The notes beneath the pieces are model-generated. The model saw nothing but the letters and a program-made list of their open reading frames with translations, was not told the origin of the DNA and searched no databases. A DNA stretch of 64,000 bases from an uncultured Erysipelotrichaceae bacterium (lineage in GTDB: Bacteria > Bacillota_I > Bacilli_A > RF39 > UBA660), in contig CADCJQ010000003.1 of the NCBI GenBank assembly GCA_902801795.1, forward strand, positions 20,129 through 84,128, written 5' to 3'. The translations under genes and the position numbers were made by a program. Shown here in pieces: positions 53,718 through 62,905 of the stretch (its first letter is position 1; the number at the start of each line of letters is the position of its first letter).

Positions 53718-53811
53718 TATTAGTGTGAAACTCGGACACTTTCCGAGATGCAATAAATGAACTAACTCTTTAAAGTTAGTTTTTTTGTGTTTCAGAAAGG
53801 AGTGATGAGTA

Positions 53812-54083
53812 TGTTTAAATTAGAAACTAAAAAACTTACAATAAGTGAATCATTAAGAAAGAAGATTGAAATAATATGTAGTTTTGCAAATGTTAAATAT
53901 GAACTTATAGAAGGTAGTATTATATCAGTTAAAGACACTAATTTAGGTTTTGTTAAGCCACATGTATTAAAAGTTAAAGGAAATGATTATCTTCTATTTG
54001 AAGATACTAAAACAGTTTTTATAAATGGTTATAAAGATAAAATTAAATTAACTGAATTAGAAGAATATCTAAAGAATAATTAA
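53812..54083 (+). CDS. small hypothetical protein (90 aa) preceding the serine recombinase
   Basis: GAAAGGAG RBS. Its 5' end (MFKLE) recurs in the deletion scar at 62783. Confidence 0.4.
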
Positions 54084-54180
54084 TATCTATTCCACGAAGT
54101 GGGAATTGACAATGAAATAAAAAATGATAGTATAAATAATCAAGAAATGTTTACTTTTTAACTGAGAAAGGAGAATTTGA

Positions 54181-56061
54181 ATGGATAATGAAAGAAAGAT
54201 AGCTGGTATTTATATTCGTGTTTCAACTGAAGATCAAGCAAGAGAAGGTTTTAGTTTAGGAGAACAAGAGAGCCGTTTAAAACAATATTGTGGCTTTAAA
54301 GAATATGAAATATATAAAGTATATCAAGACGCTGGAATAAGTGCTAAAAACGATAAAAGACCAGCATATCAAGAAATGATGAATGATATAAAAGATAAAA
54401 AGATAAATGTAATTGTGGCTTTTAAACTAGATAGATTAACTCGTTCTGTCTTTGATATTGAAAAACTAATGAAATTTGTAAATGATAATGAATGTGATAT
54501 TGATTGTATGGCTGATGAATCCAATACCACAACATCAAATGGCAGAATGGTTATGAGAATAATGACAAGTGTTTCCCAAAATGAAATAGAGAAATGCTCT
54601 GAAAGAACAAAAGTAGGAATGGCAGGAGCAATTAAACAAGGACATTTACCTTATAGCGCGCCATTAGGTTATAAGCGAGATAATAAAAAATTAGTACCAG
54701 ATCCATTAACTAAAGATATAATAGTCAGAATATTTAACTTATATCTTGAAGGTAATTCACATCAAAAGATAGCTAATATTTTTAATAAAGAAAAAGTGTT
54801 AGGAAGAGATACTTGGTATGATACAACAATTCAGAAAATTTTAAGTAAAGAAGTTTATAAAGGTGATTTTGTTCATGGAAAAAGAACTAAGCATCCAACA
54901 TATTATGAAAATGTTGTAGAACCATTAGTAAGTAAAGAAATATGGGATAATTGTCAATACCAAAAGAAAAGAAATGCTAGACATTATGAAAGAACATCAA
55001 CATATCTTTTTACAAATAAAATTAAATGCTCTAAATGTGGGAATATTTTAGGTGGTTCAGCATCAAAAAAGAAATCAGGAAAGAAATACTATTACTATAA
55101 GTGTGAACATTGTAAATGTTTCTTTAATGAAAATATTATTGAAGAAAAACTTATTGATGCATTAATTCTATTACAAAAACAAGAAGAATTATTAAATGAT
55201 TATTACACACCATTTATAAAATCAAAATTAAATAATAAAATAGATGAATATGAAAAAGAATTAAAGAACTTAGAAAGTCAAATTGATAGAATTAAAGCTG
55301 CTTATATTAAAGGTGTAGTAAAATTAGATGTTTTTGAAAAAGATTTAAAACAGATTGAATTTAGAAAACAAGAAATAGAAAATAAAATAGAAGAACAAAA
55401 ACAATATGATAATTTATCATTTACTTTAGATGATTTAATTATCTTTGAAGATACACAAAAAATAGATTTTATAAATAATCCTACAAACTATATTAATCTT
55501 ATATCTGATTGGATGATACTATCAAGAGAGGAAAAGCAAAAAATAATATCACATTATATTGAAGATATTGTAGTAGAGAAAAAAGATGATGATTTTGTAA
55601 TTAAAAATATATCTTTTTTATCATCATACATAAGTACTTTATCAATGAATCATTTAAAATATAAAACACCATTTAATTTAACTTTATTTCAAGATGAAAA
55701 GGGAAATAGAATACCAACTAATTGTGAATATCGAAAAAAAGAAGATGCCAAGAAATATTTTGATAAATTAAATCAATTTGTAAATTATAAAATAAATTGT
55801 AATTTAAATTATTATGAAACAATTTATGATGCAGAATTGAAAAGTAGTGAATATTTATCTAATAAAAATGATATACCAATACGAATAATTTTAATAGATG
55901 ATCGAAAACTTGAACTTGATAATAAAATAAGATTAGGAATCATTACTATGGATGTAACTGAATTACGAAAGAAATATACACCAGATATTTTAAAATACAT
56001 TTATGATATGAGTAAAGAATACATTGAAAATATTAGGAAATCTCTATTACAGGTCATATAA
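54181..56061 (+). CDS. large serine recombinase (resolvase/integrase family)
   Basis: N-terminal catalytic domain [24 protein letters not shown] (active-site Ser), recombinase domain, zinc-ribbon (CSKCGN...[11 protein letters not shown]) and long coiled-coil C-terminus. 626 aa. Confidence 0.85.
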
Positions 56062-56139
56062 TTGAAAAAATGTTTGGTGGTATTTTTACTGAAAATAAAA
56101 TAAAAAAAAATAATATGGTGGTAAAAAAGTGTTCTCCTA

Positions 56140-61136: not shown

Positions 61137-61443
61137 TTGATTATAATAATATGTATTATAAATGATTATTTGACTAATTCAGAATTATAGGTTGACTTTT
61201 TCGGAATAGTAGTTTGATAATGCTTCTTTTAAAAAAATATATAATATATTCTTCATTTATTTAGATGCATAGAACATTATTGAGTATTATAATGTTTGTG
61301 ATATGAATATTTATATATATTTTACTCAAAATAATAATGTATAATTGTTCAAAAATGCGAGTGAACAAAAAAATAATTCCCTAAAAATAAAAAAAATTGA
61401 CTTTTAGGGAATTGAATGATATATTTATATTGGGTGATAAAAG

Positions 61444-62637
61444 ATGAAGATAATTCCTAGAGATGAATATTTAAGCAAAATGATTAGGGTAATAAATACA
61501 CCAGATATTAAAGTGTTGACTGGTGTTAGAAGATGTGGTAAGTCAAAATTATTAGAATTGTTTATAGAGTATATTGATAAAAATATTAAAAACAACAATA
61601 TTATTCACATTAATTTTAATGAGAGAAAATATGACGGATTATTAACTGGTGACAAATTATATGATTATATTTCTAATAAATATGTTAAAAATAAAATCAA
61701 TTTTGTTTTAATTGATGAAATTCAAAAATGTGATGGTTTTGAAGATACAATTAATAGTATTCATTCTGAAGAAAAATATAAAATATATATAACTGGTTCA
61801 AATGCATTTTTACTTTCTAGTGATCTAGCTACATTATTTACTGGTAGAACTTTTGAAATTAATATCTATCCTTTTTCATTTGAAGAATACAATAGATATT
61901 TTAATAATCAAAATCATTATTTATCTTTTAATTCATTTATGAATGATGGTGGAATGTCAGGATCATATTTGTACGATAATGTAGAGGATAAAAATCAGTA
62001 TTTAAAGAGCATATATAATACAATGATTTTGCGTGATATTGTTGGAAAGAATAATATTAAAAATGAATCATTACTTAACAAATTAAGTGATTATTTACTT
62101 GATAATATTTCAAATATTACTTCATCGACTAAAATAGAAAATGTCTTGAAAGGTGAATTAGAAACTGGTGATCATAAAACCATATCAAATTATTTAGATT
62201 ATTTGTGCAATGCTTTTGCTTTTTATAGAGTGAGAAGATTTGATATAAAAGGAAAGAGTTTTCTTAAATCGCAAGATAAATATTATTTAGTAGATACTTC
62301 ATTTAGAAGAGCAATCCATGGAAGAAAAGAAGAAGATTATGGCAGAATATTAGAAAATATTGTTGCAGTTGAATTATTAAGACGTGGATATGATATTTAT
62401 GTTGGTACACTATATGAAAAGGAAATAGATTTTGTTGCTATGAAAAGGGATGAACAAATTTATATTCAAGTAGTAGACAATATTGATAATGAAGCAACAA
62501 TGAAAAGAGAAATAACTCCTTTATTAAGCATAAAAGATGGTTATAAAAAGATGATTATTGCCAGATTAAATCATGAAGGATTTATTAAAGATGGTGTAGA
62601 AATAATTGACATTTCGGACTGGTTATTAAATAAGTAA
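61444..62637 (+). CDS. AAA-family ATPase (AAA_14 + DUF4143 architecture)
   Basis: Walker A GVRRCGKSKL. Walker B VLIDEIQ. C-terminal DUF4143-like region. About 400 aa, typical for this widespread family. Confidence 0.65.
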   Translation: MKIIPRDEYLSKMIRVINTPDIKVLTGVRRCGKSKLLELFIEYIDKNIKNNNIIHINFNERKYDGLLTGDKLYDYISNKYVKNKINFVLIDEIQKCDGFEDTINSIHSEEKYKIYITGSNAFLLSSDLATLFTGRTFEINIYPFSFEEYNRYFNNQNHYLSFNSFMNDGGMSGSYLYDNVEDKNQYLKSIYNTMILRDIVGKNNIKNESLLNKLSDYLLDNISNITSSTKIENVLKGELETGDHKTISNYLDYLCNAFAFYRVRRFDIKGKSFLKSQDKYYLVDTSFRRAIHGRKEEDYGRILENIVAVELLRRGYDIYVGTLYEKEIDFVAMKRDEQIYIQVVDNIDNEATMKREITPLLSIKDGYKKMIIARLNHEGFIKDGVEIIDISDWLLNK

Positions 62638-62739
62638 TATGTTATAATTTTATTAGTTAGTAAATTTATTGCTAACATTAATTTGGCAATTGGTTATGGA
62701 ACCTCCACCCAATTGGCACCATAATGATTTTTACTAACT

Positions 62740-62905
62740 AGAAATAGTTAGTTTTTTTGTGTTTCAGAGAGGAGTGATGAATATGTTTAAATTAGAAAAT
62801 GGAGAATATTTTTCTAATGAAGGAGATATTCCAATTAGAATAATATTAATAGATGCTTGAAAACTTGAACGTGATAATAAAATAAGGTTAAATAATTAAA
62901 AAATA
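62740..62905 (+). pseudogene. deletion scar: 5' end of the small ORF fused to the 3' end of the serine recombinase gene (second, degraded cassette)
   Basis: agttagtttttttgtgtttcagagaggagtgatgaatatgtttaaattagaaa matches 53777-53826. It then joins sequence matching recombinase codons about 570-600 (tctaat..gatattccaattagaataat..ttaatagatg...cttgaac.tgataataaaataag). Fused [28 protein letters not shown] stops at 62860. Confidence 0.65.

Follow-up and report, generated by a model that had tools for sequence, protein, structure and literature searches.

A probable serine-integrase element carrying a diversity-generating retroelement behind a tRNA-Thr gene, followed by a decayed sister element

The nearest described system to the locus reported here is that of the ssrA islands of Dehalococcoides, which have the serine recombinase DsiB (McMurdie et al., 2011; PMC3146451). 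We analyzed 64,000 nt of AT-rich DNA (27% G+C over the whole stretch) from an uncultured Erysipelotrichaceae bacterium (GenBank assembly GCA_902801795.1, contig CADCJQ010000003.1, positions 20,129 to 84,128 of the forward strand), hereafter called the window, in which a large serine recombinase gene and a diversity-generating retroelement (DGR) lie behind an intact tRNA-Thr(CGT) gene. In our reading, to which we assign a probability of about 0.85, a 9.0-kb serine-integrase element with the DGR as its cargo (element 1, containing cassette 1) occupies the CCA end of this tRNA gene and is followed by a decayed sister element (element 2, or cassette 2). An arrangement produced by accretion and decay is ordinary mobile-element biology; what is unusual is the target choice of the recombinase family.

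The window family has in common with the Dehalococcoides islands a serine-recombinase module at the island edge next to a transfer-messenger RNA (tmRNA) gene, tandem arrays downstream of one gene, variable adaptive cargo, and many units without an integration module, for which accretion and cis-mobilisation have been proposed (PMC3146451). The DsiB islands, however, use one site inside the ssrA T-loop and leave a 20-bp direct repeat, and their six-gene module lies on the reverse strand and includes a second, small serine recombinase. The window family, which belongs to a different phylum, inserts after the terminal CCA of many tRNA genes and of the tmRNA gene and leaves no long repeat (the shared identity is 9 nt, GGCACCATA), and its forward-strand module consists of two genes, a small open reading frame (ORF) termed orf90 and one recombinase. 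These differences place the locus outside the Dehalococcoides ssrA islands.

Tyrosine-integrase islands, for which ICESt1 and ICESt3 serve as the model, likewise use the tRNA 3' end as a hotspot, grow by tandem accretion and contain recombinase-less units between att sites (cis-mobilisable elements, CIMEs). The window family resembles them in the first two respects and may do so in the third, but its recombinase is of a different superfamily. Moreover, tyrosine-integrase elements duplicate 15-50 nt of the tRNA, as exemplified by an inovirus-like prophage at one of our comparison loci (L014, 18 nt), whereas the large serine recombinase elements share with their target only the CCA and a degenerate arm similarity. 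In the Tn4451/Tn4453-type mobilisable transposons, the serine recombinase TnpX is accompanied by the Mob/Pre relaxase TnpZ, and TnpX uses GA-centred sites that resemble the transposon ends, not tRNA CCA ends. Compared on domain content, these transposons and the window element are alike in being small, in having a large serine recombinase at one end and in having more than one target site. Relatives of the window element (L006 and L178) also possess a Mob_Pre relaxase, with TnpV nearby, whereas the window element itself is without a relaxase.

With phage-type integrases (A118/LI, TP901-1, Bxb1 and phiC31) the window recombinase has its domain architecture in common, and the family appears to share their short asymmetric att sites, 2-bp crossover and recognition box that lies 5 bp farther from the centre in attP than in attB (PMC3783163). 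In contrast, phage-type integrases use single, mostly protein-coding targets, are at most 33% identical to the window recombinase, and do not have the C-terminal extension of ~150 aa that is specific to its family. A 2020 survey of integrative elements described the use of tRNA or tmRNA genes by serine integrases as unreported and rare, with 14 cases among 297 for which experimental confirmation was called for (PMC7192596), and a large recombinase catalogue analyzed protein-coding targets alone (PMC10083194). The tycheposons of Prochlorococcus are also cargo-carrying elements at tRNA genes, and 27 of 937 have a large serine recombinase (bioRxiv 10.1101/2020.12.28.424599). However, tycheposons occur in marine cyanobacteria, mostly use tyrosine recombinases and often carry replication genes, and no CCA-end or multi-tRNA targeting is stated for their serine enzymes. 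A limited literature search returned no paper on CCA-end targeting of multiple tRNAs by a serine integrase, or on a DGR carried in this way.

Element 1 and its recombinase family

The tRNA-Thr(CGT) gene (53643-53717; all features are on the + strand unless stated otherwise) was identified as intact by ARAGORN, scores 67 bits against the Rfam tRNA model, and is the sole match in an Rfam scan of 53000-64000. It starts 25 nt downstream of the polynucleotide phosphorylase (PNPase) gene pnp, and all genes downstream of it lie on the + strand. Its T-loop box, GTTCAA, is 21 nt from the CC of the 3' CCA (53715-53717), which is the insertion point and the B arm of attL. Because 62692-62721 is homologous to the conserved right-end motif of the family, element 1 appears to extend over 53718-62721 (9,004 bp) and to enclose the whole DGR. 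At the left end (P' arm, 53718-53760, TATTAGTGTGAAACTCGGACACTTTCCGAG...), the junction reads CCA followed by TATTAGTGTGAAACTCGGACAC... and is homologous to the left-end consensus of relatives, CCA followed by GATTGATAGGAAACTCGrAC, which is represented in 72 of 72 modules. In this arm, 21 nt separate the CC of CCA from a GTCCGAG box in inverted orientation, and a box of this P' type occurs only once in the whole window. The right end (P arm, 62692-62721, GGTTATGGAACCTCCACCCAATTGGCACCA) terminates in CCA and matches the family motif GGTTGTTATACTTCCACCAAAAGGGCACCA at 22 of 30 positions. With both ends matching the conserved ends of the family and with an intact tRNA 3' end, the locus has the boundaries of a tRNA-gene integrative element. 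The left end continues into a terminator-like hairpin (ACTAACT-N6-AGTTAGT followed by T7, 53761-53786), which was read from the sequence and is kept as CTAACTAGAAATAGTTAGTTTTTTT across the recombinase family. A consensus terminator scan missed this hairpin, the stem of which is AT-rich; it probably ends read-through from tRNA-Thr.

The module that follows consists of orf90 (53811-54083; 90 aa) and its partner, the intact gene of a 626-aa recombinase (54181-56061). The recombinase matches the Pfam families Resolvase (PF00239, residues 10-155, E = 6e-35), Recombinase (PF07508, E = 8.5e-18) and Zn_ribbon_recom (PF13408, 26.9 bits at a cut-off of 25.3), with coiled-coil-type matches at residues 347-413. 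This combination of a catalytic domain, a Recombinase domain and a zinc ribbon with coiled coil corresponds, by domain content, to the definition of a large serine recombinase. Its catalytic motif RVSTEDQ (R13, S15) is invariant in ten aligned family members, and it matches the TP901-1 integrase catalytic domain at 5e-22. A preliminary description of the window, made from the DNA letters alone, had placed the DGR in an island beside tRNA-Thr that begins with a large serine recombinase, and the annotation and domain matches confirm this. The comparison with phage and integrative-conjugative element integrases that it had recommended yielded a match to the PHROG integrase family phrog_95 (E = 1.7e-114), yet the closest relatives among 50,697 phage and 72,556 plasmid records are no more than 33% identical. 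The same description had named a grouping with SpoIVCA-like excisionases as evidence that would speak against a mobile unit. The recombinase scores 150.8 bits against the XisF model, far under the cut-off of 375, and stays under the cut-offs of the CcrA, CcrB and CcrC models; the tRNA gene is intact and no gene is split, so that this grouping can be set aside.

The orf90 gene is found upstream of the recombinase gene in every related locus examined, and 60 homologs were collected. The protein has no match in Pfam, PHROG or NCBIfam, its AlphaFold2 model (pLDDT 92.9) gave no fold match, and neither sequence nor fold revealed a relative beyond its own homologs. As a guess, it could be a candidate directionality or regulatory factor.

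Full-length relatives of the recombinase, 60-97% identical, number in the thousands and come from metagenome-assembled genomes labelled as uncultured Bacilli or Tenericutes. In the first three contexts, the same pair of a ~90-aa ORF and a ~610-627-aa recombinase lay in unrelated chromosomal neighbourhoods with differing downstream genes; a tRNA gene stood immediately upstream in every case, and some of the contexts had two module pairs in tandem. The family sample used below comprises 84 related loci from uncultured low-GC Bacilli, 80 of them fetched after the first contexts, with a recombinase alignment. In relatives, the left-end consensus is followed by a hairpin and then by the terminator-like hairpin. 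A CCA stands immediately before each of the 72 recognisable left ends. Intact tRNA genes on the same strand are abutted by 43 of them (Gly 14, Thr 10, Leu 8, Met 3, Arg 3, Cys 2, Ala 2, Trp 1), the tmRNA gene by 13, and a CCA-ending tRNA remnant or the right-end arm of a preceding element by the other 16. The sequences found before second units fall into a few types, one of which is GGTTGTTATACTTCCACCAAAAGGGCACCA; in at least 12 loci, this right-end motif recurs at a distance of 3-6 kb on the 3' side of a recombinase module, and either host trailers with terminators or another element follow it. Family members span 3-9 kb between their defined ends, and cargo found elsewhere with the module includes a Mob_Pre relaxase with a leucine-rich-repeat protein, helix-turn-helix (HTH) regulators and small unknown ORFs. 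Modules of 2,419 nt are 100% identical behind tRNA-Arg(ccg) (L131, L135) and tRNA-Leu(tag) (L133), and modules behind tRNA-Gly(gcc), tRNA-Gly(tcc), tRNA-Cys(gca) and tmRNA are 99.5-99.9% identical. The presence of near-identical modules at different tRNA genes therefore indicates that the family has been recently mobile and is not tied to one tRNA.

The att sites were compared with their arms anchored on CCA. The tRNA-specific acceptor bases are kept left of CCA in attL, and P-arm-specific bases (GGGCA or CCGCT) are kept there in attR and at tandem junctions; the base after CCA is G or T in attL as against A or T in attR; and the same element occurs at tRNAs that share the 3' CCA alone (ACACCA and GCACCA; CCTCCA and CCACCA). 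Because arm-specific bases persist left of CCA, the following base differs and the target tRNAs share CCA alone, we infer a 2-bp crossover within CCA. The junctions are likewise consistent with attP x attB catalysis by the recombinase through a 2-bp staggered crossover. Measured from CC, the tRNA T-loop box GTTCGA lies at 21 nt, the related GTTGTTA box of the right-end (P) arm at 26 nt, and the inverted GTTCGAG box of the left-end (P') arm (GTCCGAG in the window) at 21 nt. The boxes of the tRNA arm and of the P arm differ by 5 bp in their distance from CC, which would correspond to the attB/attP geometry of serine integrases (PMC3783163). The predicted attP, in which the right end is joined to the left end, is ...CCACCCAATTGGCACCA/TATTAGTGTGAAACTCGGAC..., and excision of element 1 alone is predicted to leave tRNA...CCA/TAATGATTTTTACTAACT.

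The right-end arms (L141, L146, L147, L150, L161 and others; 62685-62721 in the window) have a further feature, namely a hairpin followed after ~8-10 nt by CCA, which resembles a tRNA T-arm plus the acceptor 3' strand. Their stems covary (GGTTGT/ACAACC, ATGGTT/AACCAT, CAATTGG/CCAATTG), and this covariation could reflect selection on an RNA or single-strand structure beyond duplex binding sites.

Cassette 2 and tandem arrays

A blastn comparison of 62600-64000 with 53600-58800 gave four collinear blocks of 76-89% identity, which substantiates the tandem, recombinase-less second cassette first described from the letters. Block 1 (62733-62798 = 53761-53826; 89%, E = 3e-20) contains the terminator hairpin (62733-62758 in cassette 2), the ribosome-binding site and the first five orf90 codons. 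Block 2 (62790-62898 = 55835-55945; 81%, E = 3e-25) is a recombinase fragment, block 3 (62937-63249 = 56388-56693; 76%, E = 5e-61) holds an (ATT)n tract, the promoter and the 5' end of the DGR target gene, and block 4 (63542-63805 = 57007-57270; 79%) lies in the coding region of the target and its paralog. The decayed left part of element 2 accordingly occupies 62722-62936, and the recurring promoter region (62937-63072) and target paralog (ATG at 63073) occupy 62937-64000, where the paralog runs off the window. The paralog is 55% identical to target residues 3-269.

Cassette 2 has three gaps. The first comprises ~2.01 kb (53827-55834) of the orf90/recombinase module, with a 9-nt microhomology (AATTAGAAA/AATTGAAAA) at the deletion junction. 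In the second, 442 nt (55946-56387, including the GGNCC block described below) are replaced by 38 nt. In the third, ~32 nt of the conserved left-end site are gone, and cassette 2 reads CCA followed by TAATGATTTTT; the order at the junction is P arm with CCA, TAATGATTTTT and terminator hairpin. Compared with a CIME, cassette 2 has lost its recombinase, and its left junction keeps the P arm and CCA of element 1 with its own P' box deleted. The retained recombinase fragment corresponds to codons ~552-588 of 626 and stops 38 codons short of the gene end. It lies in frame with orf90 codons 1-5 and has a CGA to TGA change, leaving a 25-aa fusion ORF (62783-62860; orf90 codons 1-5 and recombinase codons ~552-575, with the TGA as stop). 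The preliminary description was thus right about the recurrence of terminator and promoter, the large deletion and the missing GGACCA block; its six orf90 codons, its last ~30 recombinase codons and its deletion size of ~2.05 kb are corrected by these alignments, and the third gap is one that it did not mention.

The two cassettes could alternatively have arisen by in-situ segmental duplication of a unit of small ORF, recombinase, promoter and target, one copy of which then decayed, with no second integration. The collinearity of the four shared blocks and the same kind of cargo gene in both cassettes would suit such a duplication, and element 2 did not turn up as an independent free copy. We nevertheless consider it improbable. 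A family-type right-end arm with CCA sits exactly before the left-end sequence, as it does elsewhere in arrays with unrelated cargo. Furthermore, cassette 2 is 19-28% diverged from cassette 1, which is no closer than to L097, an independent relative whose recombinase and target are 90% and 80% identical, respectively: identity to each is 72-81%, and the recombinase fragment of cassette 2 is nearer L097 (GEYLSNEGDVPIRIILLD) than cassette 1. Because it is equally diverged from both, cassette 2 appears to be a separately acquired, decayed sister element and no recent duplicate.

Three other, independent assemblies (L001, L003 and L004) match the window at 100% identity through 63895 and diverge at 63896. 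Past this point they remain in frame (...EFVSASTGIDFGAISSDTNGKG), and each of them stops after 55 nt, whereas the window has a different sequence in which the frame is broken (stop at 63946-63948) and the paralog resumes in another frame. An interpretation as a frameshifted paralog pseudogene was withdrawn in view of these assemblies. Either a deletion in the strain or a joining of paralogs during assembly accounts for the divergence, and more target paralogs probably lie downstream of the window.

Tandem arrays occur in 14 of the fetched loci. Degraded modules are visible in four loci: L106 has an internal deletion, L144 a broken frame, L146 fragments and L148 82 codons. In each case the degraded module is the tRNA-distal one, and the proximal modules of the fetched arrays showed no such decay. 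In L178, an independent recombinase-deleted cassette follows a right-end arm, reading CCA and then TATTAGTGTAAAACTCGGAC, 87% identical to the window left end. Here ~12 orf90 codons are joined directly to an 83.5%-identical homolog of the DGR target with a region like the variable repeat (VR), without template repeat (TR), Avd or reverse transcriptase (RT). This pattern fits newcomers inserting at the tRNA end while older distal units decay. With a family that inserts after the CCA of tRNA and tmRNA genes and forms arrays with decayed distal modules, the earlier suggestion of tandem mobile units at the tRNA, one of them recombinase-less, is upheld. In L014/L015/L160 (1-9560), an inovirus-like prophage (Zot, Rep_1 and a tyrosine integrase) lies between tRNA-Gly(GCC) and a serine-recombinase element, and in L014 it is the 3' end of the tRNA that it duplicates. 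L013 has the same site without the prophage, and L120 has a different recombinase element after the same prophage.

Cargo, control region and other features

The cargo of element 1 includes the DGR target gene (56517-58769; 750 aa from the ATG at 56517) with the VR inside it (58562-58676), the TR (59019-59133), an Avd-like accessory gene (59315-59680; a weak match to Pfam bAvd, E = 6e-4, below the cut-off), the RT gene (59661-61136; Pfam RVT_1, 4.7e-15; PHROG reverse transcriptase, 1.6e-75) and, as the last gene, an ATPase of Pfam type AAA_14/DUF4143 (61444-62637). Because all 33 of the 33 differences between VR and TR fall at TR adenines, and given the RT and the weak bAvd match, the DGR is genuine. 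The C-terminus of the RT (60720-61136, residues ~355-490) contains a ~130-aa MutS_I domain (E = 1.1e-6, 29 bits, above the Pfam cut-off); MutS domain I is the mismatch-binding domain. An exhaustive search for this MutS_I-like domain gave 167 cluster representatives, most of which are stand-alone proteins of 130-140 aa. About ten are the C-termini of 470-515-aa proteins, and these are likely RT fusions.

The target protein has a signal-anchor N-terminus and chromosomal homologs, the N-terminus of which (...GSITYAFFNYTRTG) we take to resemble a SipW-type signal peptide. In L179 (7754-17847), target homologs form tandem paralogs beside type VII secretion genes (EssC-like FtsK/FHA, WXG100), and in L178 (2468-6849) a target homolog lies beside a Flg_new-domain paralog on a Mob_Pre element. 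DGRs are often phage-borne, and the match of the recombinase to phrog_95 could also suggest the remnant of a temperate phage or conjugative element with a serine integrase, in which the DGR is a tropism-switching cassette. Such an origin is very improbable: ORF and Pfam annotation of 53718-62721 revealed no capsid, tail, terminase, replication or conjugation gene, the 3-9 kb between the defined ends of family members and the limit of 33% identity to phage and plasmid records both argue against it, and so do the signal anchor and chromosomal homologs of the target. Pfam likewise found no Mob domain in 53718-62721, and the relaxase of an integrative mobilisable element is thus missing, in a search that did not cover oriT.

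Between the recombinase and target genes, two hairpins come first (GACCAC-CGAAA-GTGGTC, then TTTTGCA-AG-TGCAAAA; 56173-56208). The same arrangement is found 3' of the recombinase gene in L013 and L010, the first hairpin has a compensatory stem change in L097, and the two likely form the end of the recombinase transcript. The hairpin with CCA at 56175-56192 was considered as a boundary that would make the DGR a separate recombinase-less unit; this was rejected because CCA is absent after the equivalent L010 hairpin and because the hairpins look like a transcript end. The next region (56187-56385) consists of a GGNCC cluster (56187, 56216, 56262 and 56313) and a ~120-nt block. With four occurrences in 130 nt, compared to 28 in the whole 64 kb, the cluster is significant, and the GGACCA region of the preliminary description is real. 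The ~120-nt block beside it is ~99% identical to L097, as against ~79% in its flanks. Cluster and block are confined to elements carrying this target gene and are absent behind 68 other family recombinases, on which ground the cluster was rejected as a set of recombinase sites. Both appear to constitute the upstream control region of the target gene, that is, cargo rather than recombination module. The block holds a promoter-like site and a hairpin, AAGAACACTGAGTGTTCTT, and had no Rfam match; 56187-56385 could bind a regulator or encode a small RNA upstream of the DGR target gene.

The remaining part (56374-56516) contains an (ATT)n tract, three TGTAAAA direct repeats and the promoter, the best match for which is TTGAAA-17-TATAAT at 56454-56482. 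The (ATT)n microsatellite (56374-56412) immediately precedes the repeats and the promoter of the target; it is retained in cassette 2 at 62935-62961, has 15 nt fewer in L097, and is a candidate for phase-variable expression of the target gene. All the parts listed at the outset for cassette 1 (hairpin, 90-aa ORF, 626-aa recombinase, GGACCA region, repeat promoter and target) are thereby annotated. Although the recombinase lies directly upstream of this unusual control region and a paralog is nearby, a domesticated recombinase switch that would control target and paralog by DNA inversion, excision or exchange alongside the DGR, as in the recombinase-driven cassette system once suggested, is barely credible, given the single P'-type site in the window, the lack of att-like sites in or around the target genes, the lack of convincing inverted repeats at promoter or genes (the sole pair is AT-rich, 24 nt, 79%), the restricted distribution of the GGNCC block, the scores far under the XisF and Ccr cut-offs, and the occurrence of the same module with unrelated cargo at tRNA ends everywhere.

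Elsewhere in the window, no ORF of at least 100 aa is present over ~6 kb at 5462-11506, which is presumably an rRNA operon. The other tRNA gene of the window is tRNA-Gly(UCC) (13782-13855). Its trailer (13705-13782, - strand) aligns at 76-79% with the left ends of relatives until ~70 nt past CCA, and a terminator hairpin whose loop is likewise TAGAAATA falls within it; neither orf90 nor a recombinase comes after it, and a small XRE-type HTH ORF lies beyond. This trailer could be what is left of a further family element, a left end on its own.

Proposed history and significance

We propose that element 1 integrated site-specifically, exactly after the encoded 3' CCA of tRNA-Thr(CGT), an insertion that would keep the tRNA intact and provide it with another trailer and terminator. 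Recognition by the recombinase probably involves the T-loop box of the tRNA together with CCA, which would explain why close relatives lie behind at least eight kinds of tRNA and the tmRNA. The cargo would be a complete DGR, with a secreted target protein, TR, Avd and RT, plus the AAA ATPase. The element of cassette 2, roughly 20-25% diverged, probably came first; element 1 would later have inserted at the intact tRNA end and displaced element 2 distally, and three deletions would then have stripped the older element of its P' site, of most of orf90 and the recombinase gene, and of the sequence 3' of the recombinase.

Several observations weigh against a DGR-bearing serine-integrase element at this site. 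The P' arm of element 1 departs from the family consensus over its first 10 nt, and its box, at the attB-type spacing of 21 nt, misfits a canonical symmetric attP; the attB-type spacing may mean that the occupied site still resembles a target. A dyad-symmetry scan of the att sites found no clear centre and was uninformative. In G+C content the island (26.1%) does not differ from its flanks (26.3%), and the right end of the array falls outside the window. We found neither an empty tRNA-Thr site nor an island-free strain, nor a circular junction, at which no search was aimed: every contig that exact-protein look-ups returned for the PNPase, the recombinase, the target or the ATPase has a 100% identical island, and the nearest species-representative genomes (PNPase at most 84% identical) have no tRNA-Thr or island genes after pnp. 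The empty-site comparison recommended earlier was therefore carried through but uninformative. Flank-matching among the fetched loci gave the inovirus-like prophage as the sole polymorphism, and mobility appears for relatives alone, in the form of identical modules at different tRNAs. Finally, the right junction of element 1 now abuts a degraded site, and the element may no longer be able to excise on its own.

A wider proposal, which we offer tentatively and at slightly less than even odds, is that the family enzyme is a pan-tRNA serine integrase that crosses over within CCA, recognises the T-loop and can use essentially any CCA-encoding tRNA or tmRNA gene. With the inverted T-loop-like box of the left arm at attB-type spacing, the occupied site would still be target-like, arrays would grow tRNA-proximally as older units decay at the distal side, and surface-protein genes, in the present case with a whole DGR, would be ferried between uncultured gut and rumen Bacilli.

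The relatives described here constitute a whole, recently active serine integrase family at the CCA end of many tRNA genes and of the tmRNA gene, with both element ends defined. With this family it becomes possible to test why tRNA genes are favoured by tyrosine integrases and not by serine enzymes (cf. PMC7192596), and a serine integrase with a short, universal and predictable target could serve genome engineering. For the biology of DGRs, the locus suggests that a complete DGR can travel on a 9-kb, phage-independent, recombinase-driven element, and the independent deletions in the window and in L178 suggest that such cargo becomes fixed through loss of the recombinase.

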